The translations under genes and the position numbers were made by a program. The notes under the pieces are model-generated. The model saw only the letters and a program-made list of their open reading frames with translations. It made no database searches and had not been told where the DNA came from. DNA of 64,000 nucleotides from Escherichia coli. Lineage in GTDB: Bacteria; Pseudomonadota; Gammaproteobacteria; Enterobacterales; Enterobacteriaceae. This document shows positions 33,186-64,000 of this stretch, piece by piece. The DNA lies in assembly GCF_044324785.1 (NCBI RefSeq), contig NZ_CP172127.1; one strand, 5' to 3'. Each line of letters starts with the position of its first letter. Positions within the stretch are counted from its first letter, which is position 1.

Positions 33186-33687
33186 TCGCCCGCAGCCATC
33201 ACCGACCACGGGCGAAAGTGTAAAGCAGGTGCCTTACCACCCTGACCTGACAACCGGATATGCGGGGATTACTCCCCGCACAACGGCTACTTCTTCGGTT
33301 CGTAAGCGAGAACAGCCTTAAACTCAATATTACGTTCCTTCACCGTAAACTCACACAGCGAGTCTCCGACCAGAAGCGTAAATCCCAGTACCGTCAAACA
33401 CAGCACTATGACTGCCACAAGGGCATATTTCGTCAGCATGTTTATATTGCCTCCATGCGAAGAAGGGACTACCATCCAAATTGTCTGGTTTGGAGTGGCA
33501 GCCCCAGGGTTGATAGAAATATCTCCTGGGGCTTCATCTTTCCAGACCTCAGAGTAAACCTGAAACCGGAAAGCTTCAGGCACCCGCCGTTATCTTACCC
33601 TTCCTTAGCAAAATATCTGTTTATTTATACAGTGAGTCCTGTTTCGGACTTCTGTCGGCAAAACTCATCATTGCTCTTAAAACGAAA
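33186..33687. repeat. hok/sok-type toxin-antitoxin locus, tandem unit 1 (about 502 bp)
   Basis: Direct repeat of the following unit at a 502-bp offset, near-identical. Confidence 0.85.
33287..33439 (-). CDS. hokE: Hok-family membrane toxin (HokE-like), 50 aa, copy 1
   Basis: [50 protein letters not shown] at the C-terminus of ORF-track frame 33287..33583. Confidence 0.85.
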
Positions 33688-34165
33688 TCGCCCGCAGCCA
33701 TTGCTGACCGCGGGCGAAAGTGTAAAACAGGTGCCTTACCACCCTAACCTGACAACCGGATATGCGGGGATTACTCCCCGCACAACGGCTACTTCTTCGG
33801 TTCGTAAGCGAGAACAGCCTTAAACTCAATATTACGTTCCTTCACCGTAAACTCACACAGCGAGTCTCCGACCAGAAGCGTAAATCCCAGCACCGTCAAA
33901 CACAGCACTATGACTGCCGCAAGGGCATATTTCGTCAGCATGTTTATATTGCCTCCATGCGAAGAAGGGACTACCATCCAAATTGTTTGGGTTTGGAGTG
34001 GCAGCCCCAGGGTTGATAGAAATATCGTCCTGGGGCTTCATCTTTCCAGACCTCAGAGTAAACCTGAAACCGGAAAGCTTCAGACACCCGCCGTTATCTT
34101 ACCCTTCCTTAGCAAAATAGCTGTTTATTTATACAGTAAGTCCTGTTTCGGACTTCTCAATCCTC
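33688..34165. repeat. hok/sok-type toxin-antitoxin locus, tandem unit 2
   Basis: Second copy of the about 500-bp unit; diverges from unit 1 after about 34163. Confidence 0.85.
33789..33941 (-). CDS. hokE: Hok-family membrane toxin, 50 aa, copy 2 (V8A relative to copy 1)
   Basis: [50 protein letters not shown] within ORF-track frame 33789..33977. Confidence 0.8.
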
Positions 34166-34375: not shown

Positions 34376-35503
<1,128 letters not shown>

Positions 35504-46870: not shown

Positions 46871-48308
46871 GCCATTTCAGCGCCCGTTTTCGCTGGCAAC
46901 CCGCCTGACCTTTTTTATCAGCCTGGCCACCATCGCGGCGTTTTTCGCCTTTGCATGGATCATGATCCACTCAGTAAAAGTGCATTTTGCCGAGCAGGAT
47001 ATTAATGATTTAAAAGAGATTAGCGCCACACTCAAGCGCGTTCTTAATCATCCCGAAGAGACACAAGCCCGACGCTTAATGACGCTGGAAGATATCGTCA
47101 GTGGTTATTCCAACGTGTTGATTTCCCTGGCAGATAGCCACGGTAAAACGGTATATCACTCCCCCGGTGCGCCCGATATCCGCGAGTTTGCACGTGATGC
47201 CATACCCGATAAAGACGCGCGGGGCGGCGAGGTGTATCTCCTTTCCGGCCCGACAATGATGATGCCGGGCCACGGTCACGGGCATATGGAACACAGCAAC
47301 TGGCGGATGATTAACTTGCCGATTGGCCCGTTGGTGGACGGCAAACCGATTTATACGCTCTACATCGCGCTTTCGATCGATTTTCATCTTCATTACATAA
47401 ATGATTTGATGAATAAACTTATTATGACCGCATCGATCATCAGCATCCTGATCGTCTTTATCGTGCTATTGGCGGTACATAAAGGTCACGCGCCGATCCG
47501 CAGCGTCAGCCGTCAAATCCAGAATATCACCTCGAAAGATCTCGACGTTCGCCTTGACCCGCAGACCGTGCCGATTGAGCTGGAACAGTTGGTACTGTCG
47601 TTCAACCATATGATCGAGCGTATTGAGGATGTCTTTACCCGCCAGTCCAATTTCTCAGCGGATATCGCCCACGAAATTCGTACACCAATTACGAATCTCA
47701 TAACGCAAACGGAAATCGCCCTCAGCCAGTCGCGCAGCCAGAAGGAGCTGGAAGATGTGCTCTACTCTAATCTCGAAGAGCTGACGCGAATGGCGAAAAT
47801 GGTCAGCGATATGTTGTTTCTCGCCCAGGCCGATAACAACCAGTTAATCCCCGAAAAGAAAATGCTCAACCTGGCGGATGAAGTCGGCAAAGTGTTCGAT
47901 TTTTTCGAGGCGTTAGCGGAAGATCGCGGCGTGGAGTTGCGGTTTGTTGGTGACGAGTGTCAGGTTGCGGGCGATCCGCTGATGTTGCGTCGGGCGTTAA
48001 GCAACCTGCTTTCGAACGCCCTGCGTTATACGCCACCCGGAGAGGCAATTGTTGTGCGCTGCCAGACGGTCGATCACCAGGTGCAAGTTACCGTCGAAAA
48101 CCCCGGTACGCCCATTGCGCCCGAGCACTTACCGCGATTGTTTGACCGTTTCTATCGCGTTGACCCCTCCCGTCAGCGAAAAGGCGAAGGTAGCGGCATT
48201 GGTCTGGCGATAGTGAAATCGATAGTTGTCGCGCATAAAGGCACGGTTGCGGTAACGTCAGATGCGCGGGGGACAAGGTTTATGATCAAACTACCGGAGA
48301 AAGGTTAA
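46860..48308 (+). CDS. cusS: Copper/silver sensor histidine kinase CusS, about 482 aa
   Basis: ORF-track frame 46848..48308; ATG at 46860 ([10 protein letters not shown]...) overlaps the cusR stop; H-box [10 protein letters not shown]. Confidence 0.94.
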
Positions 48309-49051
48309 TTAGTTAGTTCAAACTCAAAGAGTGATGTATCGCCTTCTGTTATTATTTATCAATAAAACAGGGAAGACCTTATTGGTCGTCTGAAATCGAA
48401 GGTTATTCATTTTCGGATATTTACGAGATATTTAGATATGCAATTTAATCAAATTCGTGTTTCTACCAATTGTAGAGCACAATGCTATTACTAAATTTTC
48501 ATCACTATAAAAGAATCGGCTATAATATAAAGCGCAGTCAGGCATCATTAATCTCTATATTATTCACACAATCTATTTATCAAGTGAATTTGATAAATTC
48601 CTAATTTAAAATATTCACTATTAAGCCAGCGTCTAACGACGTTAAGATGGCAATGTGCAGATCATGTTATCAGGGTGGGGCGGTAGCGTATATTCCTTAT
48701 ACAAACCATCATTCATTTCAATAATATTTATTGAGTTATTTATTATTGTGAATAAAAAGACATTACAAATATTGGTTTAACTTTGCATATCAGGTGTTTT
48801 TTTGTTACTCGATGTAATATACGAGCCTGTCCTTAATAACATCGTGAACCCGTCAGTTGAGTTTGTGATTATTTTGTTGACTCAACAGCCCCCCGTTTCT
48901 CTGAAGTAAAATCCCGGACAAAATTCTCACATAACCATGACACTTTTCTGATATTCCCCGGTAACGCCTGAAGCCGGCCCGCTTATCTCATTACCCGACA
49001 TGTTGTACATGCAATATGTGCGGATTATTATTCATTTTCACGGAGGTTGCT
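48309..49051. other. AT-rich non-coding junction between the core genome (cusS) and the Rhs/vgrG accessory element
   Basis: About 740 bp with no convincing ORF and abrupt compositional change; K-12 gene order would place nfrB here. Confidence 0.6.
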
Positions 49052-50953
49052 ATGTCAACCGGATTACGTTTCACACTGGAAGTGGACGGCCTGCCACCGG
49101 ACGCTTTTGCGGTGGTCTCCTTTCATCTCACCCAGTCACTCTCTTCACTTTTTTCCCTAGACCTTTCTCTGGTCAGTCAGCAGGTTCTCTCCCTTGAATT
49201 TGCGCAGGTGCTGGACAAAATGGCCTACCTGACGGTATGGCAGGGCGATGACGTACAGCGCCGGGTGAAAGGCGTGGTGACCTGGTTTGAACTCGGGGAG
49301 AACGACAAAAACCAGATGCTGTACAGCATGAAGGTGCGCCCGCCGCTGTGGCGGGCAGGACTGCGTCAGAACTTCCGTATCTTCCAGAACGAGGACATCA
49401 GAAGCATCCTCGGCACCATACTGCAGGAAAACGACGTCACGGAGTGGAGCCCGCTGTTCAGCGAGCCGCATCCTTCCCGTGAGTTTTGTGTCCAGTACGG
49501 TGAAACCGATTACGACTTTCTCTGCCGGATGGCAGCGGAGGAAGGCATCTTCTTCTATGAGGAGCACGCGCAGAAAAGTACCGACCAGAGTCTGGTGCTG
49601 TGCGACACGGTCCGCTATCTGCCGGAGTCCTTTGAAATCCCCTGGAACCCGAACACCCGTACCGAGGTGAGCACCCTCTGCATCAGCCAGTTCCGCTACA
49701 GCGCACAAATCCGTCCTTCCTCCGTGGTGACCAAAGACTACACCTTTAAACGCCCCGGCTGGGCCGGGCGTTTTGACCAGGAAGGCCAGCATCAGGATTA
49801 CCAGCGCACACAGTATGAAGTGTATGACTGGCCGGGGCGTTTCAAGAGCGCCCACGGGCAGAACTTTGCCCGCTGGCAGATGGACGGCTGGCGAAACAAC
49901 GCAGAAACCGCGCGGGGAATGAGCCGCTCGCCGGAGATATGGCCGGGACGGCGAATTGTGCTGACGGAGCATCCGCAGGCGAACCTGAACCGGGAATGGC
50001 AGGTGGTGGCGAGCGAACTGCACGGCGAACAGCCGCAGGCGGTGCCGGGACGGCGGGGCGCGGGGACGGCGCTGGAGAACCAGTTTGTGGTAATCCCGGC
50101 AGACCGGACGTGGCGGCCACAGCCGAAGCCAAAGCCGTCAGTGGACGGTCCACAGAGCGCCGTCGTGACGGGGCCTGCGGGAGAGGAAATCTTCTGCGAC
50201 GAGCATGGCCGGGTGCGGGTGAAATTCAACTGGGACCGCTATAACCCGGCCAACCAGGACAGCTCGTGCTGGATACGGGTGGCGCAGGCGTGGGCGGGGC
50301 CGGGATTTGGCAACCTGGCGATACCGCGCGTGGGTCAGGAGGTCATTGTGGACTTCCTCAACGGCGACCCAGACCAGCCCATCATCATGGGCCGCACCTA
50401 TCACCAGGAAAACCGCACCCCCGGCAGCCTGCCGGGAACGAAGACGCAGATGACCATCCGCTCCAAAACATATATGGGCAGCGGGTTTAACGAGCTGAAG
50501 TTTGACGATGCAACAGGGAAAGAACAGGTCTACATCCACGCGCAGAAGAACATGGATACCGAGGTGCTCAACGACCGTACCACCACCGTAAAACACGATC
50601 ACCGCGAAACCGTAAAAAATGACCAGACGGTCACGATCCAGGAAGGTAACCGCCTTCTTACGGTGGCAAAAGGCCACAAAATCACAGGCGTACTAAAAGG
50701 GTCCTTATCTGAGGATGTCTTTCAGGACAGAGGCACGATTGCCGGTTCAGTGCATGTTGACGCTGTAAACAATGGTGGCGAAGGCGACGGTATACAGGCT
50801 TATACGGCGATTAAGCAAATTATGCTGGCCGTGGAGGAAAGCAAAATTGCGCTGACGCCGGATGGCATTCAGCTACAGGTCGGGGAATCGACGGTAATCA
50901 GGCTGTCGAAGGATGGCATCACCATCGTGGGCAGTTCTGTTTTCATCAACTGA
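49052..50953 (+). CDS. vgrG: Rhs-linked VgrG (type VI secretion spike protein), 633 aa
   Basis: ORF-track frame 49016..50953; start at MSTGLRFTLEVDGLPPDAFAVVSF with GGAGG ribosome-binding site; gp27/gp5-like VgrG sequence. Confidence 0.9.
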   Translation: MSTGLRFTLEVDGLPPDAFAVVSFHLTQSLSSLFSLDLSLVSQQVLSLEFAQVLDKMAYLTVWQGDDVQRRVKGVVTWFELGENDKNQMLYSMKVRPPLWRAGLRQNFRIFQNEDIRSILGTILQENDVTEWSPLFSEPHPSREFCVQYGETDYDFLCRMAAEEGIFFYEEHAQKSTDQSLVLCDTVRYLPESFEIPWNPNTRTEVSTLCISQFRYSAQIRPSSVVTKDYTFKRPGWAGRFDQEGQHQDYQRTQYEVYDWPGRFKSAHGQNFARWQMDGWRNNAETARGMSRSPEIWPGRRIVLTEHPQANLNREWQVVASELHGEQPQAVPGRRGAGTALENQFVVIPADRTWRPQPKPKPSVDGPQSAVVTGPAGEEIFCDEHGRVRVKFNWDRYNPANQDSSCWIRVAQAWAGPGFGNLAIPRVGQEVIVDFLNGDPDQPIIMGRTYHQENRTPGSLPGTKTQMTIRSKTYMGSGFNELKFDDATGKEQVYIHAQKNMDTEVLNDRTTTVKHDHRETVKNDQTVTIQEGNRLLTVAKGHKITGVLKGSLSEDVFQDRGTIAGSVHVDAVNNGGEGDGIQAYTAIKQIMLAVEESKIALTPDGIQLQVGESTVIRLSKDGITIVGSSVFIN

Positions 50954-50980
50954 TTCACTCAGATTAACAGGGAGTATTTT

Positions 50981-51442
50981 ATGCAGTTCACTTTTAATGA
51001 AGGTCATATTCAGCTGCCATCGCAATGGCAGGATCAGTCGATGCAGGTCCTGGTGTCCACAGATAACAGTGGCATCAACCTGGTCATTACCCGCGAACCC
51101 GTTCCACAGGGAACCCTGACACCAGAACTGTACCAGGAAACGCTGGCGCTGTACCAGGGCAAACTTGATGGGTACACCGAACATGCCTGCCGGGAAATCA
51201 CTCTGGCAGAGGCCCCGGCCTGGCTGCTGGATTATTCCTGGAACGGTCCGGAAGATGAAGGGAATCAGGGGCGGATTAGCCAGATAGCCGTATTCCAGCG
51301 GCGTGGAGATACGCTGCTGACCTTCACTTTCAGCACCTCCTTATCCCTGAAGAACAGTCAAAAGACGATGCTGCTGGAGGTGATAAAGAGCTTCACCCCG
51401 TTGCCACCGGAGAATGACATCCAAAAGGACCAGCCGCGCTGA
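50981..51442 (+). CDS. DUF1795-family (Eag-type) chaperone for a prePAAR effector, 153 aa
   Basis: Full ORF directly upstream of a prePAAR-Rhs gene; family call by gene context and size. Confidence 0.65.
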   Translation: MQFTFNEGHIQLPSQWQDQSMQVLVSTDNSGINLVITREPVPQGTLTPELYQETLALYQGKLDGYTEHACREITLAEAPAWLLDYSWNGPEDEGNQGRISQIAVFQRRGDTLLTFTFSTSLSLKNSQKTMLLEVIKSFTPLPPENDIQKDQPR

Positions 51443-51461
51443 CATAAACGAGGGATAACAC

Positions 51462-54400
51462 ATGAGTGAAGGACCAGGCGGGCCACAGGGAGCGACCGCA
51501 GGCGGTACGCTGGCAATGCGAATGCTGTCACAGCAGGCGATGGTCGCCAGCCAGATGAAACGGGCAGCCAACGACAAAGCCATTGCACAGATGTTGGCAT
51601 CAAAAAAGTCTGGCCCCCCCGCCGCCAGGCTGGGCGATGAAATTCAGCACAAGAGTTTTTTGGGGGCGCTGGCAGGGGCCGTGCTGGGGGCGATAGTGAC
51701 CATCGCAGAAGGTTGCCTGATTATCGCCGCCTGTGCCACCGGCCCTTATGCGCTGGTTCTGGTGCCTGCGCTGATGTATGCCAGCTATAAGGCGAGTGAT
51801 TATGTGGAGGAGAAACAGAACCAGCTTGAATCCTGGATAAACAGCTTTTGTGACAAGGACGGGGCCATCAATACTGGTTCTAAAAATGTAAACATTAACG
51901 GAAAGCCCGCTGCCAGGGCCGCCGTCACACTTCCCCCTCCTCCCCTGACTGAAGCAATACCCTCTCCACCACAGGGGGAACCTTCATGGGGGGATATTGC
52001 CACTGACCTGCTTGAATCGGCAGCGGAAAAAGCAGTGCCACTGGCGAAGGCCTGGGGGAACGCTGTTATCACCCTGACGGACAGCAATGCCAGTTTTATG
52101 GATCGCTTATGTGCAGGCACATCGCTTCTGTTTCCCTACGGCCCGGTATTAATGGAGTTTGCCACCATGGTGGGCGGGCGTGGCGAAATCAAAAAAGACG
52201 TGGATTTCCCGGAAGCCGGTGAAGACACGGCGCTCTGCGACAAGGAGACTAAACCGCCGAGGATAGCCCAGGGCAGCAGCAACGTCTTCATCAACAATCA
52301 GCCTGCCGCGCGCAAGGGCGACAAACTGGAGTGCAGCGCGGCAATCGTGGAAGGTTCGCCGGACGTCTTTATTGGGGGTGAGCAGGTCACCTATCTGGAT
52401 ATCCAGCCGGAGTTCCCGCCGTGGCAGAGAATGATCCTGGGGGGAATAACGATAGCCAGCTATCTTCTGCCGCCAGCGGGACTGCTGGGAAAAATGAAGA
52501 ATCTGGCGAGACTCGGCAAACTGGGAAACCTGCTGGGGAAAAGCGGGAAGCTGCTGGGCGCAAAACTCGGCGCATTGCTGAGCAGAACAAAAAATGCCCT
52601 GAAAAATACGTATAACGTCCTGAAAAAGTTTATCAAAGATCCGGTTGACCCGGTAACCGGCGCGTACTGCGACGAACGTACCGACTTCACCCTGGGCCAG
52701 ACCCTCCCCCTCTCCTTCACCCGTTTCCACAGTTCTGTACTGCCACTGCATGGCCTGACGGGCGTGGGCTGGAGCGACTCCTGGAGCGAATACGCCTGGG
52801 TGCGTGAACAGGGAAACCGGGTGGATATCATCAGCCAGGGAGCCACGCTGTACTTTGCCTTCGACGGAGACAGTGATACGGCGGTTAACCCGTATCACGC
52901 CCAGTATATCCTGCGCCGCCGCGACGATTACCTGGAGCTGTTCGACCGTGATGCCCTGAGCAGCCGCTTCTTTTATGACGCCTTTCCGGGAATGCGCCTG
53001 CGCCACCAGGTGACCGGCGATACCAATGATGACCGCCTGGCACACAGCCCCGGTGACCGGATGTACATGCTGGGCGGAATGAGTGACACCGCCAGCAACC
53101 GCATCACGTTTGAGCGCGACAGTCAGTACCGGATCACGGGTGTCAGTCACACCGACGGGATCCGGCTTAAACTGACGTACCACGCCAGCGGCTACCTGAA
53201 AGCCATTCACCGCACGGATAACGGCATACAGACGCTGGCGACCTACGAACAGGACGAACGGGGACGGCTGACAGAAGCGGATGCGCGGCTGGACTACCAC
53301 CTGTTTTATGAGTACGACGATGCGGACCGGATCATCCGCTGGTCCGATAACGACCAGACGTGGAGCCGTTTCACCTACGATGCACAGGGCCGGTGCGTGA
53401 CCGTCACCGGGGCGGAAGGCTATTACAACGCCACGCTGGACTATGGTGACGGCTGCACTTCCGTGACGGACGGCAAGGGCATTCACCGTTATTACTATGA
53501 TCCTGACGGCAATATCCTGCGGGAAGACGCGCCGGACGGCAGTACCACCACGTATGAATGGGATGAATTCCATCACCTGCTGGCCCGCCACTCCCCTGCC
53601 GGACGGGTGGAGAAATTTGAATACAACGCCGTACACGGTCAGTTAAGCCGTTACACGGCGGCAGACGGCGCGGTGTGGCAGTACCGCTATGATGAGCGCG
53701 GCCTGCTCAGCAACATCACCGACCCTGCCGGGCAGACGTGGACACAGCAGTGTGATGAACGCGGCCTGCCGGTAAGTCTGGTGTCGCCACAGGGCGAAGA
53801 GACCCGGCTGGCGTACACGCCACAGGGGCTGCTGTCGGGGATATTCCGCCAGGATGAACGGCGTCTGGGCATAGAGTACGACCACCACAACCGGCCGGAA
53901 ACACTCACCGACGTGATGGGCCGTGAACACCACACCGAATACAGCGGTCACGACCTGCCGGTGAAGATGCGCGGCCCCGGCGGTCAGTCAGTGCGGTTAC
54001 AGTGGCAGCAGCACCATAAACTGAGTGGCCTTGAGCGGGCAGGAACCGGCGCGGAAGGATTCCGCTACGACCGCCACGGCAACCTGCTGGCGTACACGGA
54101 CGGTAACGGCGTTGTCTGGACAATGGAATACGGCCCGTTCGATTTGCCGGTGGCGCGAACGGACGGTGAAGGCCACCGCTGGCAGTACCGCTACGATAAA
54201 GACACGCTGCAACTGACAGAAGTCATCAATCCGCAGGGTGAGTCATACCGTTATATTCTCGACAACTGTGGCCGGGTGACGGAAGAGCGTGACTGGGGCG
54301 GCGTGGTCTGGCGTTACCGCTATGACGCCGATGGCCTGTGTACCGCCAGGGTTAACGGCCTGGAGGAAACTATCCTCTACAGCCGGGACGCCGCAGGCCG

Positions 54401-56324
54401 CCTGGCAGAAGTCATCACCCCGGAAGGCAAAACGCAGTATGCGTATGACAAATCCGGCAGGCTGACGGGTATCTTCAGCCCGGACGGCACATCACAGCGC
54501 ACCGGCTACGACGAACGCGGGCGGGTGAATGTCACCACTCAGGGCAGACGGGCCATTGAGTACCACCACCCCGATGAACACACCGTTATCCGCTGTATCC
54601 TGCCACCGGAAGATGAACGCGACAGACACCCCGGTGAATCCCTGCTGAAAACCACCTACCGCTACAACGCCGCCGGAGAACTGACGGAGGTTATCCTGCC
54701 GGGGGATGAGACGCTGACGTTCAGCCGTGATGAGGCAGGACGTGAAGTGCTCCGGCACAGTAACCGGGGTTTTGCCTGTGAACAGGGCTGGAATGCAGCC
54801 GGTCAGCTTACCAGCCAGCGCGCCGGATTTTTCCCGGCGGAAGCCACATGGGGCGGACTGCTCCCCTCACTGGTGCGGGAGTACCGTTACGACAGCGCGG
54901 GCAATGTGTCGGCTGTCACCAGCCGGGAAGACTACGGACGGGAAACACGGCGGGAGTACCGGCTGGACCGGAACGGCCAGGTCACAACGGTGACAGCCTC
55001 AGGCACCGGGCTGGGCTATGGCGAAGGCGACGAGACTTATGGCTATGACAGCTGCGGCTACCTGAAGGCGCAGTCTGCGGGCAGGCACCGGATAAGTGAA
55101 GAGACTGACCAGTATGCCGGAGGCCACCGGCTGAAACAGGCCGGAAACACGCAGTATGACTATGACGCCGCAGGCCGGATGGTCAGCCGCACCAGACACC
55201 GTGACGGCTACCGCCCGGAAACAGAGCGGTTCCGGTGGGACAGCCGGGACCAGCTGACCGGGTATTGCAGCGCACAGGGGGAGCAGTGGGAATACCGCCA
55301 CGACGCCAGCGGCAGGCGGACGGAAAAACGCTGCGACCGGAAGAAAATCCGTTTTACGTACCTGTGGGACGGCGACAATATTGCGGAAATCCGGGAATAC
55401 CGCGATGATAAACTGTACAGCGTACGGCACCTGGTGTTTAACGGCTTTGAGCTGGTAAGCCAGCAGTGCAGCCGGGTACGGCAGGCGCATCCGTCCGTGG
55501 CCCCGCAGTGGGTGACGCGAACGAATTATGCGGTGAGCGACCTGACAGGCCGCCCGCTGATGCTCTTTAACAGTGAAGGTAAAACCGTCTGGCGGCCGGG
55601 ACAGACCAGCCTGTGGGGGCTGGCACTCAGCCTGCCCGCAGACACCGGCTACCCGGACCCGCGCGGGGAACTGGACCCGGAAGCCCCCCCCGGCCTGCTG
55701 TATGCGGGACAGTGGCAGGATACGGAATCGGGGCTGTGCTATAACCGGTTCCGGTATTACGAGCCGGAAACCGGAATGTACCTGGTGAGTGATCCGCTGG
55801 GGTTGCAGGGAGGTGAGCAGACTTACCGGTATGTGCCTAATCCTTGTGGGTATGTTGATCCGCTGGGGCTGGCAAAAACCAGTATTATAAAATCTTCTAC
55901 AGGCAAAATCCCACAAGGGTTAACAAAAAGCGAATTTGAGATTTTTTCAAAAAAATTAAAGGATGTATTAGCCCGAGAGGGAATCTCGACAGAGAATGTG
56001 TTTGTACATGGCAGTAGAGCCAGAGGAGATGCTGTATCAGGTGTTTCAGATATTGATATAAAAGTGATCCTTAGTGATAAAGATTTTGGTGCCTTTGCAG
56101 CAAGACGTATTGCTGAGTCCTCAGGAAGGACTCGAAATTTAATCAGGAAGGCCGTTGCTAAAAATCAAAAAATAAATTCAAGAGGAATTTCTAAAACTTT
56201 TGAATCTACTGTATGGGATGAGGTTTTCACTACCTTACCAAAAGGTGAGTTTTCAAGCATTCAAGTTTCTGTTATGACCAAAACTTCACCATTCAACACT
56301 AATCCGAGTATTATATTACCATGA
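51462..56324 (+). CDS. prePAAR/PAAR-domain Rhs effector with C-terminal polymorphic toxin domain, 1620 aa
   Basis: N-terminal AARLGDEIQH prePAAR motif and TM helices, split PAAR region, YD/Rhs repeats, PxxxxDPxGL-type demarcation (PNPCGYVDPLGL), then an AT-rich 150-aa C-terminal extension. Confidence 0.92.
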   Translation: MSEGPGGPQGATAGGTLAMRMLSQQAMVASQMKRAANDKAIAQMLASKKSGPPAARLGDEIQHKSFLGALAGAVLGAIVTIAEGCLIIAACATGPYALVLVPALMYASYKASDYVEEKQNQLESWINSFCDKDGAINTGSKNVNINGKPAARAAVTLPPPPLTEAIPSPPQGEPSWGDIATDLLESAAEKAVPLAKAWGNAVITLTDSNASFMDRLCAGTSLLFPYGPVLMEFATMVGGRGEIKKDVDFPEAGEDTALCDKETKPPRIAQGSSNVFINNQPAARKGDKLECSAAIVEGSPDVFIGGEQVTYLDIQPEFPPWQRMILGGITIASYLLPPAGLLGKMKNLARLGKLGNLLGKSGKLLGAKLGALLSRTKNALKNTYNVLKKFIKDPVDPVTGAYCDERTDFTLGQTLPLSFTRFHSSVLPLHGLTGVGWSDSWSEYAWVREQGNRVDIISQGATLYFAFDGDSDTAVNPYHAQYILRRRDDYLELFDRDALSSRFFYDAFPGMRLRHQVTGDTNDDRLAHSPGDRMYMLGGMSDTASNRITFERDSQYRITGVSHTDGIRLKLTYHASGYLKAIHRTDNGIQTLATYEQDERGRLTEADARLDYHLFYEYDDADRIIRWSDNDQTWSRFTYDAQGRCVTVTGAEGYYNATLDYGDGCTSVTDGKGIHRYYYDPDGNILREDAPDGSTTTYEWDEFHHLLARHSPAGRVEKFEYNAVHGQLSRYTAADGAVWQYRYDERGLLSNITDPAGQTWTQQCDERGLPVSLVSPQGEETRLAYTPQGLLSGIFRQDERRLGIEYDHHNRPETLTDVMGREHHTEYSGHDLPVKMRGPGGQSVRLQWQQHHKLSGLERAGTGAEGFRYDRHGNLLAYTDGNGVVWTMEYGPFDLPVARTDGEGHRWQYRYDKDTLQLTEVINPQGESYRYILDNCGRVTEERDWGGVVWRYRYDADGLCTARVNGLEETILYSRDAAGRLAEVITPEGKTQYAYDKSGRLTGIFSPDGTSQRTGYDERGRVNVTTQGRRAIEYHHPDEHTVIRCILPPEDERDRHPGESLLKTTYRYNAAGELTEVILPGDETLTFSRDEAGREVLRHSNRGFACEQGWNAAGQLTSQRAGFFPAEATWGGLLPSLVREYRYDSAGNVSAVTSREDYGRETRREYRLDRNGQVTTVTASGTGLGYGEGDETYGYDSCGYLKAQSAGRHRISEETDQYAGGHRLKQAGNTQYDYDAAGRMVSRTRHRDGYRPETERFRWDSRDQLTGYCSAQGEQWEYRHDASGRRTEKRCDRKKIRFTYLWDGDNIAEIREYRDDKLYSVRHLVFNGFELVSQQCSRVRQAHPSVAPQWVTRTNYAVSDLTGRPLMLFNSEGKTVWRPGQTSLWGLALSLPADTGYPDPRGELDPEAPPGLLYAGQWQDTESGLCYNRFRYYEPETGMYLVSDPLGLQGGEQTYRYVPNPCGYVDPLGLAKTSIIKSSTGKIPQGLTKSEFEIFSKKLKDVLAREGISTENVFVHGSRARGDAVSGVSDIDIKVILSDKDFGAFAARRIAESSGRTRNLIRKAVAKNQKINSRGISKTFESTVWDEVFTTLPKGEFSSIQVSVMTKTSPFNTNPSIILP
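55872..56321 (+). other. Rhs C-terminal toxin domain, candidate nucleotidyltransferase fold
   Basis: HGSRARGDAVSGVSDIDIKV matches the hG[GS]-x(9-13)-DhDh nucleotidyltransferase signature by eye; sharp drop in GC at the DPLGL boundary. Confidence 0.55.
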
Positions 56325-56671
56325 AGAAAAAAGATATTAGATTTGCAATATCCATTAACTCCAACTTAAGTAAGATAGAATTAATGGAAAAAATTAAAAA
56401 TATAATCCCAGGGCTTATTGAAATAACTTCCAGTGCATTAAGAGAAGAAAAAAACATGGTAGTTATTGAAGAAAATGATCTTTATGACCCTATAAAAGCA
56501 GAGGGAGCTGATGGATGGATGTATTATAAATTCATATTATCCATATTCCCATTAAAGGGAGTGGAAACAACATTAGAATATCAACGGGAATTATCTTTTC
56601 TTTTCTTAAAGAAAATAAAAGATGCGGGCCTGTTGGGTGAACTTATATGCGAGGATGATTTTCATGACTGA
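56321..56671 (+). CDS. Putative cognate immunity protein for the Rhs toxin, 116 aa
   Basis: ATG overlaps the rhs stop (ATGA); AT-rich small ORF immediately downstream of the toxin domain. Confidence 0.7.
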   Translation: MKKKDIRFAISINSNLSKIELMEKIKNIIPGLIEITSSALREEKNMVVIEENDLYDPIKAEGADGWMYYKFILSIFPLKGVETTLEYQRELSFLFLKKIKDAGLLGELICEDDFHD

Positions 56672-56719
56672 TGACCTCTACATATATCCTCAGTTCGTGG
56701 CTGGTATTACATGATCTGA

Positions 56720-56880
56720 CAGGGAAAGATCGTGGCGAAATCAAAAAAGACGTGGATTTCCCGGAAGCCGGTGAGGACACGGCGCTCTGCGACAAGGAGA
56801 ACAAACCACCGAGGATAGCCCAGGGCAGCAGCAACGTCTTCATCAACAATCAGCCTGCCGCACGCAAAGGGGACAAACTG
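56720..56880 (+). repeat. Displaced copy of an rhs PAAR-region fragment (matches about 52180-52328), flanked by 'cagggaaagat' 11-mers
   Basis: About 150 bp near-identical to the main rhs gene; left flank carries the same 11-mer that begins the H-repeat element. Confidence 0.8.
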
Positions 56881-58171
56881 CAGGGAAAGATCACGTAACG
56901 CTGCTTTTTTGTACTAAATAATTCGCATTTTATGTTTAAAAATTGAGATATTCCTCATTACCTAAAGCTGTTTTTTATTGCTTATACATGATCAAATACT
57001 CCTTACATAATTAAGGAGAACAAAATGGAACTTAAAAAATTGATGGAACATATTTCTGTTATCCCCGATTACAGACAAGCATGGAAAGTAGAACATAAAT
57101 TGTCAGATATTCTACTGTTGACTATTTGCGCCGTCATTTGTGGTGCAGAAGGCTGGGAAGATATAGAGGATTTTGGTGAAACACATCTCGATTTTTTGAA
57201 GCAATATGGTGATTTTGAAAATGGTATTCCTGTCCACGATACCATTGCCAGAGTTGTATCCTGTATCAGTCCTGCAAAATTTCACGAGTGCTTTATTAAC
57301 TGGATGCGAGATTGCCATACTTCAGATGATAAAGACGTTATTGCAATCGATGGAAAAACACTCCGGCATTCTTATGACAAGAGTCGCCGCAGGGGAGCGA
57401 TTCATGTCATTAGTGCGTTCTCAACAATGCACAGTCTGGTCATCGGACAGATCAGGACGGATGAGAAATCTAATGAGATTACAGCTATCCCAGAACTTCT
57501 TAACATGCTGGATATTAAAGGAAAAATCATCACAACTGATGCGATGGGTTGCCAGAAAGATATTGCAGAGAAGATACAAAAACAGGGCGGTGATTATTTA
57601 TTCGCTGTAAAAGGAAATCAGGGGCGGCTTAATAAAGCCTTTGAGGAAAAATTCCCACTGAAAGAATTAAATAATCCAGAGCATGATAGTTACGCAATTA
57701 GTGAAAAGAGTCACGGCAGAGAAGAAATCCGACTTCATATTGTTTGCGATGTCCCTGATGAACTTATTGATTTCACGTTTGAATGGAAAGGGCTGAAGAA
57801 ATTATGCATAGCAGTCTCCTTTCGCTCAATAATAGCAGAGCAAAAGAAAGAGCCAGAAATGACGGTCAGATATTATATCAGTTCTGCTGATTTAAACACA
57901 GAAAAGTTCGCCACAGCAATCCGAAACCACTGGCACGTGGAGAATAAGCTGCACTGGCGTCTGGATGTGGTAATGAATGAAGACGACTGCAAAATAAGAA
58001 GAGGAAATGCAGCAGAATTATTTTCAGGGATACGGCACATCGCTATTAATATTTTGACGAATGATAAGGTATTCAAGGCAGGGTTAAGACGTAAGATACG
58101 AAAAGCAGCTATGGACAGAAACTACATGGCGTCAGTCCTTGCGGGGAGCGGGCTTTCGTAATCTTTCCCTG
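56881..58171 (+). mobile_element. H-repeat (ISAs1-family) insertion sequence, complete copy, about 1.29 kb
   Basis: Terminal inverted repeats cagggaaagatcacg (left) and cgtaatctttccctg (right); contains an intact transposase ORF. Confidence 0.85.
57025..58161 (+). CDS. ISAs1-family (H-repeat-associated) DDE transposase, 378 aa
   Basis: Full ORF with AAGGAG ribosome-binding site; [50 protein letters not shown]... typical of E. coli H-repeat ORF-H proteins. Confidence 0.88.
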
Positions 58172-58174
58172 GAC

Positions 58175-58396
58175 ATGACGATTATTGTTCGTTCAAATCC
58201 GAGTAAAGCCGCTATTCTTGAAGAATTTTTACATGGTACACAAGAGAAACTAGGAATAGCTGAAAAATTAGGACGTTATGGACTAGGGAGTGCAGAAACG
58301 CACGTTAAGGATTTCATGATAAGACACAAAAAAATGCTTGGGTTATCTGATGAGGATGTAGCAATACTCAAAATATTGAAAGACAAGGGGTTGTGA
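58175..58396 (+). CDS. Hypothetical small protein, 73 aa (possible toxin C-terminal remnant or immunity protein)
   Basis: ATG 3 nt after the IS right end; ORF-track frame 58139..58396 begins inside the IS. Confidence 0.35.
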   Translation: MTIIVRSNPSKAAILEEFLHGTQEKLGIAEKLGRYGLGSAETHVKDFMIRHKKMLGLSDEDVAILKILKDKGL

Positions 58397-58683
58397 TGAA
58401 TATAATTCTGCCGATAAAAGATATATTTATTATTGCGGGAAACATAGTTTTTAGCGTTTTATACAATGAACATATTGAGTTCCCATGCCGCTGCCAATTA
58501 CTATCTTCAAATTCTGAAGTTATGCAAGAGTTATATATTGAAAAAGAGTTATTTATTAAACGCACTACAGAAAATGATTGTCGTGCTTTAGTGTTAAGAG
58601 GAACATTGGAATACTTATTTGATGAAATTATTGCTGGCGATTGTGCATTGGCCTTATTACAAAAAGAAATAAAAAAAGATTAA
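58393..58683 (+). CDS. Hypothetical protein, 96 aa, candidate orphan immunity protein
   Basis: ATGA overlap with the preceding ORF; AT-rich; position within the Rhs orphan array. Confidence 0.45.
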   Translation: MMNIILPIKDIFIIAGNIVFSVLYNEHIEFPCRCQLLSSNSEVMQELYIEKELFIKRTTENDCRALVLRGTLEYLFDEIIAGDCALALLQKEIKKD

Positions 58684-58895
58684 TCCAATATGTAGAACTG
58701 GACAATACCCATCTTTTAACAATGAACTTCGTAATTTTTATCTTAGAAATAATGCTACATTATATGAGGTATATCATGAAGTAATTCATGCCAAGCAATT
58801 TGCGAAAATATTTCTATCGGAGGTGCTGATGCACCATCTAATATGAGACTTATGGATATAATGACACATACAACTCATCATAAATATTACAGGCC

Positions 58896-59264
58896 TTGGG
58901 AATGATAAATAAAATAGTGAAAAAAATGTTGGTTTCATATAGCCCTAAGAAACCGGAGTCTAGGGGCGGGGATTTTGTTATTCCGTTGTTTTTTAATGAG
59001 AAAGTTTCTTTTTTTAGCATAAAAAGTGGCAAGCCAGTGCGATATGGTCTTATGGTATTTACAGGGAAAGTAATTACCATAGATGATATTCTTAGTAAAG
59101 TTCGTTTTCCTGATGTTATGAATGAGCAAAATATTCAACCGTTAATTGACTTTATTAATAACATTAGCGATTTTAAAATAGGGGATGTTATTGAAATTGA
59201 TGATAATGGTAAATTGAAAGTTGTGCCAAAATCAGCAGGACACCCTGTGAGTAAATTGCCATGA
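58896..59264 (+). CDS. Hypothetical protein, about 120 aa, candidate orphan immunity protein
   Basis: AT-rich ORF (ATG at 58902); its stop lies about 20 bp before orphan rhs homology begins, in the same frame. Confidence 0.45.
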   Translation: MGMINKIVKKMLVSYSPKKPESRGGDFVIPLFFNEKVSFFSIKSGKPVRYGLMVFTGKVITIDDILSKVRFPDVMNEQNIQPLIDFINNISDFKIGDVIEIDDNGKLKVVPKSAGHPVSKLP

Positions 59265-59284
59265 TACTTAAGGGGCCTGATTTT

Positions 59285-62051
59285 CTGTTTTTGCCAGTGG
59301 GACGAATACCATCACCTGCTGGCGAGGCTGTCTCCGGCAGGACGGCTGGAAAAGTTTGACTATCATCTGACACTCGGTCAGTTAAGCCGTTACACGGCGG
59401 CAGACGGCGCGGAGTGGCAGTACCGCTATGATGAGCGCGGCCTGCTCAGCAACATCACCGACCCTGCCGGGCAGACGTGGACACAGCAGTGCGATGAACG
59501 CGGCCTGCCGGTGAGTCTGGTGTCGCCACAGGGCGAAGAGACCCGGCTGGCGTACACCGCTCAGGGGCTGCTGTCGGGGATATTCCGCCAGGATGAACGG
59601 CGTCTGGGCATAGAGTACGACCACCACAACCGGCCGGAAACACTCACCGACGTGATGGGCCGTGAACACCACACCGAATACAGCGGTCACGACCTGCCGG
59701 TGAAGATGCGCGGCCCCGGCGGTCAGTCAGTGCGCTTACAGTGGCAGCAGCACCATAAACTGAGCGGCATTGAACGTGCTGGAACCGGCGCGGAAGGATT
59801 TCGCTATGACCGCCACGGCAACCTGCTGGCCTGGACGGACGGCAACGGTGTTGACTGGACAATGGAATACGGCCCGTTTGATTTGCCGGTGGCGCGAACG
59901 GACGGTGAAGGCCACCGCTGGCAGTACCGCTACGATAAAGACACGCTGCAACTGACAGAAGTCATCAATCCGCAGGGCGAGTCATACCGTTATATTCTCG
60001 ACAACTGTGGGCGGGTGACGGAAGAGCATGACTGGGGCGGCGTGGTCTGGCGTTACCGCTATGACGCCGATGGTCTGTGTACCGCCAGGGTTAACGGCCT
60101 GGAGGAAACCATCCTCTACAGCCGGGACGCCGCAGGCCGCCTGGCAGAAGTCATCACCCCGGAAGGGAAAACGCAGTATGCGTATGACAAATCCGGCAGG
60201 CTGACGGGTATCTTCAGCCCGGACGGCACATCACAGCGCACCGGCTACGACGAACGCGGGCGGGTGAATGTCACCACTCAGGGCCGACGGGCCATTGAAT
60301 ACCACCACCCCGATGAACACACCGTCATCCGCTGTATCCTGCCACCGGAAGATGAACGCGACAGACACCCCGGTGAATCCCTGCTGAAAACCACCTACCG
60401 CTACAACGCCGCCGGAGAACTGACGGAGGTTATCCTGCCGGGGGATGAGACGCTGACGTTCAGCCGTGATGAGGCAGGACGTGAAGTGCTCCGGCACAGT
60501 AACCGGGGTTTTGCCTGTGAACAGGGCTGGAATGCAGCCGGTCAGCTTACCAGCCAGCGCGCCGGATTTTTCCCGGCGGAAGCCACATGGGGCGGACTGC
60601 TCCCCTCACTGGTGCGGGAGTACCGTTACGACAGCGCGGGCAATGTGTCGGCTGTCACCAGCCGGGAAGACTACGGACGGGAAACACGGCGGGAGTACCG
60701 GCTGGACCGGAACGGCCAGGTCACAACGGTGACAGCCTCAGGCACCGGGCTGGGCTATGGCGAAGGCGACGAGACTTATGGCTATGACAGCTGCGGCTAC
60801 CTGAAGGCGCAGTCTGCGGGCAGGCACCGGATAAGTGAAGAGACTGACCAGTATGCCGGAGGCCACCGGCTGAAACAGGCCGGAAACACGCAGTATGACT
60901 ATGACGCCGCAGGCCGGATGGTCAGCCGCACCAGACACCGTGACGGCTACCGCCCGGAAACAGAGCGGTTCCGGTGGGACAGCCGGGACCAGCTGACCGG
61001 GTATTGCAGCGCACAGGGGGAGCAGTGGGAATACCGCCACGACGCCAGCGGCAGGCGGACGGAAAAACGCTGCGACCGGAAGAAAATCCGTTTTACGTAC
61101 CTGTGGGACGGCGACAATATTGCGGAAATCCGGGAATACCGCGATGATAAACTGTACAGCGTACGGCACCTGGTGTTTAACGGCTTTGAGCTGGTAAGCC
61201 AGCAGTGCAGCCGGGTACGGCAGGCGCATCCGTCCGTGGCCCCGCAGTGGGTGACGCGAACGAATTATGCGGTGAGCGACCTGACAGGCCGCCCGCTGAT
61301 GCTCTTTAACAGTGAAGGTAAAACCGTCTGGCGGCCGGGACAGACCAGCCTGTGGGGGCTGGCACTCAGCCTGCCCGCAGACACCGACTACCCGGACCCG
61401 CGCGGGGAGCTGGACCCGGAAGCCGACCCCGGCCTGCTGTATGCAGGACAGTGGCAGGATACGGAATCAGGGCTGTGCTATAACCGGTTCCGGTACTACG
61501 AGCCGGAAACCGGAATGTACCTGGTGAGTGATCCGCTGGGGTTGCAGGGGGGTGAGCAGACTTACCGGTATGTGCCGAATCCTTTAAGATATAAAGATTT
61601 CTATGGGCTTAGTAAGAGTTCAATAATAACGAGAGGAAAGAATGCTGGTCATGGCTATGCAGCCAGCGTTACACCTGGAGGCAAAGGTACGGTGTTGGCT
61701 GGTCACGGAGGATCAAAATTTGGCGATAAAATGATTATACCAGAAGGCGTATCGATAACGATGCCGAGAGATGGTATTAAAATATCAGATATGACTGGAA
61801 AATTACTGGAATCTGGTAATGTGGATGATATAATTAAAGCTGCAAGTAATAATCCTCGTGTAGCTAGCGATCTTGAAGGTTGGGTTACTTATTTGCCCGG
61901 CACTGAAATCCCTGATTATATTTTAAAACCACCCACCAATCTTAACATACTGGAAAATTCAGTAACGGTGAACACTTCAACTTATTTATCTCAAATGGTA
62001 AATGCTGGTCAAGGTAATGTAATCTGGGCTGCATGCACCGAATTTTTTTAA
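59285..62051 (+). CDS. Orphan rhs C-terminal cassette (Rhs core repeats plus alternative toxin domain); no canonical ATG, first in-frame start is GTG at 59511
   Basis: Near-identical to the main rhs from about aa 700 onward, then diverges at a degenerate PNPLRYKDFYGL motif into a distinct roughly 147-aa AT-rich C-terminus. Confidence 0.8.
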
Positions 62052-62065
62052 CGCGGGGTAATCGT

Positions 62066-62548
62066 ATGTATTTTAAAGATGATACTGACTATACATATTT
62101 CCTTCCTAATGAATATTTTTTACACGGGGTGAAAAATGTGGGCTGGATAGACAGAGAACACCCCTTCACAAAAGGGATTAGTGACGCTGAATTTATTGAA
62201 AAGTTAAAAGCAATAATTCTAACAGAGAATGAAGCAACTTGTTTTTCAGTTAATAAAATAAGAGGATTTCACAAATGTAATTTTTGCAATAGTGAAATGA
62301 TAACAATAACCGATGGAAGAAAAAAAGGATACCTTGGCATGAGTGAAATATGGATTCCATCCATCCACCATAATGAGTATTACGCGTTTCCTTCATTAAT
62401 TTTCCATTATATAACATCTCACATGTATAGACCACCAGAGGACTTTATTGTATCTGTTTTAAACTTGAATTTAAGCGAGAGTTTTTGCGCTCAAAACATA
62501 TATGACAATAAAATTAAGGAATTAAAAATAGACTTCTGGTTTCGTTAA
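62066..62548 (+). CDS. Putative immunity protein for the orphan Rhs toxin, 160 aa
   Basis: ORF-track frame 62033..62548; ATG at 62066 just after the orphan toxin stop; AT-rich, Cys/His-containing. Confidence 0.6.
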   Translation: MYFKDDTDYTYFLPNEYFLHGVKNVGWIDREHPFTKGISDAEFIEKLKAIILTENEATCFSVNKIRGFHKCNFCNSEMITITDGRKKGYLGMSEIWIPSIHHNEYYAFPSLIFHYITSHMYRPPEDFIVSVLNLNLSESFCAQNIYDNKIKELKIDFWFR

Positions 62549-62559
62549 AGCTGGTAATT

Positions 62560-62917
62560 TAACTTATCGGGAATACCGCTATGATGGCAGTTTCAGACGG
62601 ACGGAGAAATGCTGTCAGCAAAAAGACTTCCGCTTCGCGTATCTGTGGGGCATGGGGATAATTTATCTTCATCAATTGATATATTGATTAATGGCAAGGA
62701 GGCCATTGAAATTCCGTAAGGCCAACTTGATATGACGCCTGGCACACAGCCCCGGTGACCGGATGTATATGCTGGGCGGGATGAGCGACACCGCCAGCAA
62801 CCGCATCACGTTTGAGCGCGACAGCCAGTACCGGATCACGGGTGTCAGTCACACCGACGGGATCCGGCTTAAACTGACGTACCACGCCAGCGGCTACCTG
62901 AAAGCCATTCACCGCAG
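62560..62917 (+). pseudogene. Degenerate rhs core fragments (one matching about 55270-55380, one matching 53038-53214 of the main rhs)
   Basis: Two short stretches of rhs homology, the first degenerate, the second truncated by the H-repeat insertion at 62915. Confidence 0.7.
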
Positions 62918-64000
62918 GGAAAGATCACGTAACGCTGCTTTTTTGTACTAAGCAATTCGCATTTTATGTTCAGTATTTGAGATACTCCTTATAACACAAA
63001 CCTGTTTTTCATAGCTTATATATGTAGGAAAAGATCACGTAACGCTCCTTTTTTGTACTAAATAATTCGCATTTTATGTTTAAAAATTGAGATATTCCTC
63101 ATTACCTAAAGCTGTTTTTTATTGCTTACACATGATCAAATACTCCTTACATAATTAAGGATAACAAAATGTAACTTAAAAAATTGATGGAACATATTTC
63201 TATTATCCCCGATTACAGACAAGCCTGGAAAGTGGAACATAAATTATCGGATATTCTACTGTTGACTATTTGTGCCGTTATTTCGGGTGCAGAAGGTTGG
63301 GAAGATATAGAGGATTTTGGGGAAACACATCTCGATTTTTTAAAACAATATGGTGATTTTGAAAATGGTATTCCTGTTCACGATACCATTGCCAGAGTTG
63401 TATCCTGTATCAGCCCTGCAAAATTTCACGAGTGCTTTATTAACTGGATGCGAGATTGCCATACTTCAGATGATAAAGACGTCATCGCAATTGATGGAAA
63501 AACACTCCGGCATTCTTATGGCAAGAGTCGCCGCAGGGGAGCGATTCATGTCATTAGTGCGTTCTCAACAATGCACAGTCTGGTCATCGGACAGATCAGG
63601 ACGGATGAGAAATCCAATGAAATTACAGCTATCCCTGAACTTCTTAACATGCTGGATATTAAAGGAAAAATCATCACAACTGATGCAATGGGTTGCCAGA
63701 AAGATATTGCAGAGAAGATACAAAAACAGGGCGGTGATTATTTATTCGCTGTAAAAGGAAATCAGGGGCGGCTTAATAAAGCCTTTGAGGAAAAATTTCC
63801 ACTGAAAGAATTAAATAATCCAGAGCATGACAGTTACGCCATTAGTGAAAAGAGTCACGACAGAGAAGAAATCCGTCTTCATATTGTTTGCGATGTCCCT
63901 GATGAACTTATTGATTTCACGTTTGAATGGAAAGGACTGAAGAAATTATGCGTGGCAGTCTCCTTTCGGTCAATAATAGCAGAACAAAAGAAAGAGCCAG
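62915..64000 (+). mobile_element. Second H-repeat (ISAs1-family) element, partial (runs off the window); 5' end carries a degenerate about 110-bp duplicate of the IS left end
   Basis: cagggaaagatcacgtaacgctgc... repeated at 62915 and again (ggaaaagatcacgtaacgctcc...) at 63027; the rest is near-identical to the first copy. Confidence 0.8.
63197..64000 (+). CDS. ISAs1-family transposase, second copy, partial at window end; ancestral start codon is followed by TAA (ATG TAA) so translation could only begin at the Met7-equivalent
   Basis: aaaatgtaacttaaaaaattgatggaacat versus aaaatggaacttaaaaaattgatggaacat in copy 1; downstream frame intact to the window end. Confidence 0.6.

Follow-up and report, generated by a model that had tools for sequence, protein, structure and literature searches.

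The far end of the rhs toxin island described here is probably made of three pieces, a scrap of rhs core, the left end of an older LF82-like element and a complete ISEc1, which were brought together at a junction anchored by the insertion sequence (IS), with decay of the complete element afterwards; the order and the mechanism of these events are inferred, not observed. The observed features are far beyond chance. The complete element (copy 2) is an ordinary, decaying copy of the E. coli ISEc1 (H-repeat, ISAs1 family) at the far edge of the island. Moreover, the architecture is already known from K-12 RhsC and is not novel: reports of H-repeats at Rhs ends, of defective H-repeats in tandem and of orphan rhs fragments go back to the 1990s, and in E. 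coli N3 these features already carry RefSeq annotations.

The rhs island at cusS-nfrB and its two ISEc1 copies

The window, that is, the whole stretch of 64,000 nt that was analysed, ends inside copy 2. From its gene content, the region reads as the far border of a type VI secretion effector island of the vgrG/rhs kind, inserted between cusS and nfrB, which are adjacent in K-12 with a 149-bp spacer. The island begins with vgrG (PF05954), a DcrB-family gene (PF08786) and a prePAAR-PAAR-Rhs gene with a nucleotidyltransferase-like tip (PF05488, PF05593 and C-terminal PF01909), continues with a PAAR fragment joined to ISEc1 copy 1, an orphan Rhs-CT (PF05593 and PF21527) and a DUF7919 gene, and closes with the rhs fragment, the 110-bp relic, copy 2 and nfrB. 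This is the composition of a vgrG-linked Rhs element with orphan core-CT and immunity modules, and the DUF7919 gene is the last intact cassette 5' of the rhs fragment and the IS. E. coli W (rhsW3) and Crooks reportedly have an Rhs element at b0570-b0569, which is this same cusS-nfrB site, with the layout seen here, in which C-terminal tips follow the main rhs (PMC3032704). Among cusS-nfrB Rhs elements, both the cassettes and the left junction of the terminal ISEc1 vary by strain. The features on which the analysis draws are as follows.

56731-56880, + strand: PAAR-region rhs fragment abutting the left end of copy 1 (95% identical to 52179-52331; annotated in N3 as a PAAR pseudogene)
56881-58171, + strand: reference ISEc1 (copy 1; 1291 bp), oriented like copy 2; its 378-aa transposase (57025-58161) is intact
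62033-62548, + strand: DUF7919 gene (PF25535, E = 4e-34), presumed immunity gene of the orphan Rhs-CT (59511-62051)
62736-62914, + strand: internal rhs core fragment, equivalent to codons 525-584, without N- and C-terminal parts (by homology to the main rhs, 51462-56324)
62915-63024, + strand: apparent outer ISEc1-family left-end relic (element positions 1-110) with the canonical terminal repeat CAGGGAAAGATCACG (by alignment to copy 1)
63025-64000, + strand: inner element, ISEc1 copy 2, of whose 1291 positions the window covers 1-976
63025-63047, + strand: degenerate inner left terminus TAGGAAAAGATCACGTAACGCTCC (copy 1: CAGGGAAAGATCACGTAACGCTGC), with three private substitutions
63157-63162, + strand: weakened Shine-Dalgarno AAGGAT (AAGGAG in copy 1), within a hairpin that sequesters the Shine-Dalgarno (by copy alignment and RNA folds)
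63169-63174, + strand: start-stop ATG TAA, codon 2 changed from GAA to TAA (by copy alignment)
63187-64000, + strand: transposase open reading frame (ORF) from Met7, cut by the window end; 372 aa in N3 (WP_106379230.1)

The initial annotation had recognised a second H-repeat copy here, and the transposase profiles, together with the length and termini of the element, identify it as ISEc1. The profile NF033564 for ISAs1-type DDE transposases (cut-off 70) is matched at 412 bits by the copy 2 protein read from Met7 and at 417 bits by that of copy 1, and both proteins match PF13808 and PF01609. ISEc1 measures 1291 bp between terminal inverted repeats CAGGGAAAGAT; in copy 1 the left terminus reads CAGGGAAAGATCACG and the right terminus, inverted, CAGGGAAAGATTACG. 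YhhI, YdcC and YbfD of K-12 (ISEc1/H-repeat) have the same 1291 bp, CAGGGAAAGAT termini, 378-aa DDE NF033564 transposase and Rhs association, whereas copy 2 departs from them by nonsense at codon 2, D118G, a Shine-Dalgarno that is weakened and a left repeat that is degraded and now internal.

Over 61550-64000 the window agrees at every position with the RefSeq complete genome of E. coli N3 (NZ_CP031609.1). About 240 differences separate the two further upstream, with concentrations in 47.5-55 kb and 60-61.5 kb, and therefore they are not the same assembly. The part of copy 2 within the window is identical to N3 L001 15525-16500, and in N3 the element, 1291 bp long, has kept its right inverted repeat intact and shares 96.1% identity with copy 1. 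When the differences of copy 2 from the other copies were binned to look for a mosaic structure, no clear recombination breakpoint emerged.

The 110-bp outer left end

Tandem Repeats Finder reported a repeat at 62916-63128 (period 110, 1.9 copies, 84% matches, score 314), which resolves into an outer unit at 62915-63024 and an inner unit at 63025-63134. The outer unit matches the inner one at 91/110 positions and copy 1 at 95/110, and the inner unit matches copy 1 at 106/110. The first 37 nt of the outer unit are the same as in copy 1 and the remainder is about 79% identical. Seven of its 15 differences from copy 1 are common to the LF82-type ISEc1 variant and the other eight are unique to it; some of the LF82-type states are also found in O111 and in the solo end of KY1497. 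Among 5426 complete E. coli genomes, only N3 carries the outer unit at 99% identity or more, and all other matches are at 88% or less, none of them a full-length element with the outer variant. In addition, two outer-specific patterns (27 and 20 nt) had no exact match in 100,044 species-representative genomes. The absence of the variant elsewhere suggests that the donor element is unsampled or extinct, and since no full-length element of this type was found, the older element itself stays hypothetical. Because seven of the 15 differences are of LF82 type and the best match outside N3 is 88%, we regard the 110-bp unit, on these alignments, as the relic of a different, LF82-like ISEc1 sub-lineage and not as a duplicate of copy 2's own end. 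The initial annotation had described a diverged duplicate of about 110 bp of the left end 5' of the element: the repeat itself is there, and its derivation from the element's own end gives way to the LF82-type states.

The termini of the two units lead to a further correction, since the inner end had been taken as the real left end. The perfect left terminal repeat, with the canonical terminal 37 nt, stands on the outer unit, and the inner left terminus (TAGGAAAAG...CTCC) has three private substitutions. These are three of the 20 changes private to copy 2, and about 0.36 would be expected in the first 23 nt (Poisson, P ~0.006).

A tandem duplication of the left end of copy 2 in situ, by slippage or unequal exchange, with later divergence of one copy, would account for a period of exactly 110 and for units in perfect register, but we consider it improbable. 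The 19 differences in 110 positions are too many for a recent event in a region whose flanking DNA equals that of N3 and is about 97-98% identical to that of other strains; the seven outer differences shared with LF82, O111 and KY1497 are states of natural lineage variation and not of random decay; and K-12 RhsC shows that a left-end fragment next to a complete copy can arise between distinct H-rpts. In RhsC (ybfQ/ybfL/ybfD), H-rpt positions 1-381 directly abut a complete 1-1291, which is followed by 21-913. The present boundary resembles it in that, at the downstream end of an Rhs element, a 5' H-rpt fragment is joined directly to position 1 of a complete 1291-bp H-rpt of the same orientation, and differs from it in the length of the fragment (110 bp here), its more diverged sub-lineage, the number of units (two here, three in RhsC) and the location (cusS-nfrB here, kdp-ybgA in RhsC).

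We also considered whether the relic contains a duplicated promoter, and this was rejected, as promoter-like sites were no commoner than in shuffled sequence. The sole promoter-like site common to both copies straddles element position 110, and the relic has no complete one.

Start region of the copy 2 transposase

The transposase of copy 1 starts with ATG GAA (57025-57030), whereas in copy 2 the ATG (63169-63171) is directly followed by TAA (63172-63174), and the next in-frame ATG is codon 7 (63187). Both the stop at codon 2 and the internal Met codon 7 as the sole start left had been pointed out from the sequence at the outset, and comparison of the copies bears this out: Met7 is the only remaining ATG start, and N3 is annotated likewise. 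A second G-to-T change, 10 nt 5' of the stop change, has turned the Shine-Dalgarno AAGGAG into AAGGAT (63157-63162), and the RNA fold at the Shine-Dalgarno hairpin has -8.0 kcal/mol in copy 1 and -5.3 kcal/mol in copy 2. By the sequence arrangement alone, the layout of copy 2 is ATG TAA, 12 nt and then the ATG of Met7, which has no Shine-Dalgarno. Any transposase still made would have to start at Met7, and its expression would probably be very low because Met7 has no Shine-Dalgarno of its own.

The ORF from Met7 is intact, and the NCBI pipeline calls exactly this 372-aa protein in N3 (WP_106379230.1). The Met7 start costs no conserved domain: PF13808 (residues 2-88), PF01609 and NF033564 are all kept. 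Of the codon changes between the ORFs of copy 2 and copy 1, 32 are synonymous and 10 non-synonymous. Fifteen of the 20 changes private to copy 2 lie in the ORF, 12 of them at third codon positions, which indicates that constraint on the ORF held until recently. An ORF constrained until so recently may still be expressed from Met7, and low-level expression of this kind would be a minor possibility. One of the private substitutions is D118G, nine residues past the AIDGK aspartate, at a residue kept in at least 90% of 20 homologues (65-98% identity). Another change, G231D, is also seen in E. albertii and in another homologue. Besides those at third codon positions, the private changes of copy 2, namely the Shine-Dalgarno G-to-T change, the stop at E2, D118G, G231D and the three changes in the left terminus, are all potentially damaging.

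In the homologue alignment the six N-terminal codons, M-x-L-x-x-L, are present across genera, and the first ATG would therefore be the native start; Met7 is itself conserved in at least 90% of homologues. In our reading, the TAA is private to this lineage and marks a recent step towards an inactive transposase. Across 5426 complete E. coli genomes with about 24,000 ISEc1 places, the 101-nt start region of copy 2 was found at 99% identity or more in N3 alone. No complete genome has the TAA allele on the L009 background, the best full-length match being 98%, and the combination of TAA with the weakened Shine-Dalgarno had no match in metagenome contigs. ATG TAA by itself is present in two metagenome copies that are unrelated: the first is a full-length element whose Shine-Dalgarno is canonical and whose ORF is intact, and the second has an internal deletion. 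Two 98% matches to the TAA region (H72 and H74) were considered as further TAA alleles and set aside, as they are ybfD-type copies annotated from a normal ATG.

In other relatives with a 372-aa protein, the shortening goes back to lesions of another kind within the six N-terminal codons. E. albertii copies have A5 where a run of A6 stood, and the frameshift leaves an upstream ORF of five codons (MELKN, stop) whose TGA overlaps the Met7 ATG; a Salmonella-like 372-aa copy has lost the start codon. The recurrence of lesions within the first six codons is suggestive and is confounded by ascertainment, because any lesion 5' of Met7 receives an intact-looking annotation.

These relatives bear on another reading, namely that ATG TAA is a selected one-codon upstream ORF that throttles or couples translation of an active Met7 transposase and so tames the IS. 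A Met7 protein with all Pfam and NCBIfam domains, a Met7 kept in at least 90% of homologues, an otherwise intact downstream ORF, the two unrelated metagenome copies with ATG TAA (one of them full-length with intact ORF and canonical Shine-Dalgarno) and the MELKN upstream ORF of E. albertii would all agree with it. We nevertheless judge it quite unlikely, since the allele is very rare (one of 5426 genomes, with some 24,000 ISEc1 places), is accompanied here by a weakened Shine-Dalgarno, by D118G at a nearly invariant residue and by a degraded inner terminal repeat, and replaces a start that M-x-L-x-x-L marks as native across genera; the bias by which any lesion 5' of Met7 is reported as an intact 372-aa protein also weighs against it. 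Inactivation thus remains the preferred reading of the start region, and copy 2 would best be viewed as an immobilised or nearly immobilised IS. Transposition of H-rpts has reportedly never been observed (PMC3032704). The remaining role of copy 2 would be to provide 1.3 kb of homology in direct repeat with copy 1, which lies 6.1 kb upstream.

Junctions of the nfrB-adjacent ISEc1 and their origin

The rhs fragment was noted initially at 62740-62917 as a core fragment cut at the junction, and alignment confirms this with its end exactly at the IS terminus, 2 bp (CA) being assignable to either side. Positions 62736-62920 share 97% nucleotide identity with 53034-53218 of the main rhs, and the translation corresponds to Rhs residues 525-584 with 60/60 identical. 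The fragment is annotated in N3 as an incomplete RHS repeat pseudogene and is too short for a Pfam match. For what lies past 64000 we relied on N3 in place of the genome from which the window comes. In N3, copy 2 stops at L001 16815, and after it come 45 bp of non-rhs DNA (CGTTAACCGCCCC...CATTCTAC) and then the nfrB upstream region, which is 100% identical to K-12. The source of the window would be expected to continue with the IS right end CGTAATCTTTCCCTG, then CGTTAACC and then nfrB.

ISEc1 has its right end beside nfrB in 2480 of the 5426 complete E. coli genomes (about 46%). In the sampled genomes the right junctions have two forms only, with 45 bp to the backbone in N3, KY1497 and IMT16316 and with 113-118 bp in VE-T10, O111, EC19, DEC5E, ETEC6333 and Ec-RL2-1X, whereas the left junctions have at least seven, with the following left flanks.

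ETEC6333: rhs core, at the equivalent of window position 53065
N3 and the window: rhs core, at the equivalent of window position 53218
VE-T10, O111 and EC19: rhs core, at the equivalent of window position 53366
KY1497: a different rhs position
IMT16316: toxin tip
DEC5E and Ec-RL2-1X: non-rhs DNA
WL297: 5'-truncated IS

VE-T10 agrees with N3 in the immunity gene on the upstream side and in the 5' edge of its rhs fragment, but has 147 bp more of rhs before the IS. A constant right side with a variable left side points to IS-anchored deletion or recombination and not to a simple split insertion.

No target-site duplication was found flanking either copy. The flanks of copy 1, GACAAACTG and GACATGACG, do not repeat each other. 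When the 1401 bp from the outer left repeat to the right repeat are taken as one unit, the flanks of copy 2 are CATTCACCG and CGTTAACCG (7/9 match); this pair was rejected as a target-site duplication, as VE-T10 and O111 already have both sequences, with 147 bp, the IS and 71 bp lying between them. The lack of a target-site duplication suggests a rearranged copy rather than a simple insertion, and it is no argument against the ISAs1 family.

From the rhs fragment that ends exactly at the IS terminus, the initial annotation had proposed that a simple ISEc1 insertion split an rhs core whose 3' half, a further rhs remnant, lies just past the window. This is very hard to maintain. For N3, identical over the last 2.45 kb, it is refuted by the 45 bp of non-rhs DNA and the nfrB backbone that follow the IS, a lack of downstream rhs homology being the outcome that the initial annotation itself had named as refuting; even the 116-bp spacer between IS and backbone of the VE-T10 type has no significant similarity to the rhs genes of the window and does not continue rhs from window position 53367 onwards; target-site duplications are missing; and the rhs fragment also lacks its own 5' part. 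Weaker still is the idea of an artefact of sequencing or assembly (such as a miscalled base or a repeat that collapsed), which could appeal to the frameshifted annotation of several N3 rhs genes and to the difficulty of assembling repeats, but which has next to nothing left once the window equals N3 across the whole feature, yet differs from it at about 240 positions elsewhere in the island, and the 110-bp units differ at 19 positions, so that no identical repeat was collapsed or expanded. The TAA and the tandem left end thus appear not to be a read error confined to the window, N3 being a related but non-identical assembly.

We therefore return to the reading of an anchored junction. An older LF82-like ISEc1-family element would once have sat in rhs sequence, with the resident ISEc1 on the nfrB side as the fixed anchor. 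By one route, an intramolecular (adjacent) deletion would have run from the left end of the anchor to position 110 of the upstream element; by another, an insertion nested in the older element would have been followed by homologous recombination of the two IS bodies with each other. These two routes are not distinguished by the data. Either would have removed the rest of the older element and the intervening rhs DNA, and this removal would leave an rhs fragment without a downstream partner. If the inner left end made a transposase-mediated deletion, the three terminal substitutions would have come afterwards. The later decay is seen in the sequence as the three substitutions in the left terminus, the G-to-T change in the Shine-Dalgarno, the change of codon 2 from GAA to TAA, and D118G.

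Further, the nfrB-adjacent ISEc1 might have served for a long time as a fixed anchor by which the orphan array is remodelled again and again, with lesions in codons 1-6 keeping such anchors immobile and the Met7 ORF intact, a possibility that we hold to be speculative and rather doubtful. If it were true, the H-repeat would supply the downstream homology or deletion end for the turnover of rhs toxin/immunity cassettes, and if it held for all 2480 genomes, the H-repeat, which has long lacked an explanation, would gain a definite function in that turnover. Xiang, Hobbs and Reeves reportedly described in 1994, for the rfb cluster of Salmonella group D2, an H-rpt exactly at the join of unrelated segments and proposed it as a recombination mediator; that junction lies in a different gene cluster and species.

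The corrective value of the comparison is that an rhs fragment abutting an ISEc1 end should not be taken for one half of a gene that was split. At cusS-nfrB the IS is the shared fixed point and the rhs side varies, and this population-level pattern is the only wider point worth following.

A second rhs fragment joined to an ISEc1 end was observed at copy 1. The PAAR-region fragment abuts its left end, and the right flank is an unrelated toxin fragment, so that here too the rhs fragment has no matching rhs on the opposite side.

ISEc1 junctions at the nfrB edge of the island

The right end of ISEc1 adjoins nfrB in 2480 of 5426 complete E. coli genomes. In 11 genomes sampled for comparison of the junctions (loci L001-L006 and L019-L023), the right junction of this nfrB-side element was of only two types while at least seven distinct left junctions were present, and three of these left junctions all lay inside one 300-bp stretch of the rhs core.

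ISEc1 copy 1 of the window, too, joins unrelated pieces (window 56731-58200): its left neighbour is a PAAR-region rhs fragment with 95% identity to window 52179-52331, and its right neighbour is a fragment of a zincin-like toxin. No target-site duplication was found around copy 1 when both flanks were compared.

E. coli KY 1497 has an isolated left end of ISEc1, about 87 nt long (L005 877-965), which is preceded by a PAAR fragment and breaks off into unrelated sequence. Both this relic and the 110-bp relic of the window are truncated ISEc1 left ends, but their breakpoints differ. Separately, an internal stop is annotated in nfrB or nfrA, downstream of the IS, in KY 1497, IMT16316 (L006) and Ec-RL2-1X (L021), and ISEc1 is adjacent in all three.

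Mosaic identity between the window and E. coli N3

When window 47500-61550 was set against N3 (L001) and divergence was counted per 500-bp bin, differences of about 0.8-9% per bin were found at 47.5-55 kb and 60-61.5 kb, mostly within vgrG and rhs genes, whereas the window matched N3 exactly at 55-60 kb and 61.55-64 kb. This mosaic of identical and divergent stretches suggests that recombination has occurred within the island.

Start region of the ISEc1 transposase

The 5' UTR of ISEc1 carries a hairpin, CTCCTTA-N6-TAAGGAG, in which the Shine-Dalgarno sequence is paired with its complement upstream.

56999-57018, 5' UTR hairpin of copy 1
63143-63162, 5' UTR hairpin of copy 2

RNA folding gave -8.0 kcal/mol for copy 1 (z = -2.2), and a G-to-T change in the Shine-Dalgarno sequence of copy 2 removes one hairpin pair, leaving a fold of -5.3 kcal/mol.

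Lesions confined to codons 1-6 of the transposase were found in four independent ISEc1-family copies, two of which have ATG TAA.

L009 11696-11725, codon 1-6 lesion
L010 5404-5433, codon 1-6 lesion
L014 1470-1510, codon 1-6 lesion
L017 180-220, codon 1-6 lesion

The remaining transposase ORF is intact in all of them except L010, which has an internal deletion. An E. albertii copy has its A6 run shortened to A5, and the resulting upstream ORF has a TGA overlapping the ATG of Met7; the start codon is absent from one Salmonella-like copy.

Tandem units between entD and ybdK

Elsewhere in the window, 33186-34157 holds a tandem pair of units, each about 500 bp long and 97-98% identical to the other, that looks like a duplicated hokE-like locus.

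32545-33165, entD, flanking one side
33287-33583, minus strand, Hok-family toxin ORF of one unit
33789-33977, minus strand, Hok-family toxin ORF of the other unit
34385-35503, ybdK, flanking the other side
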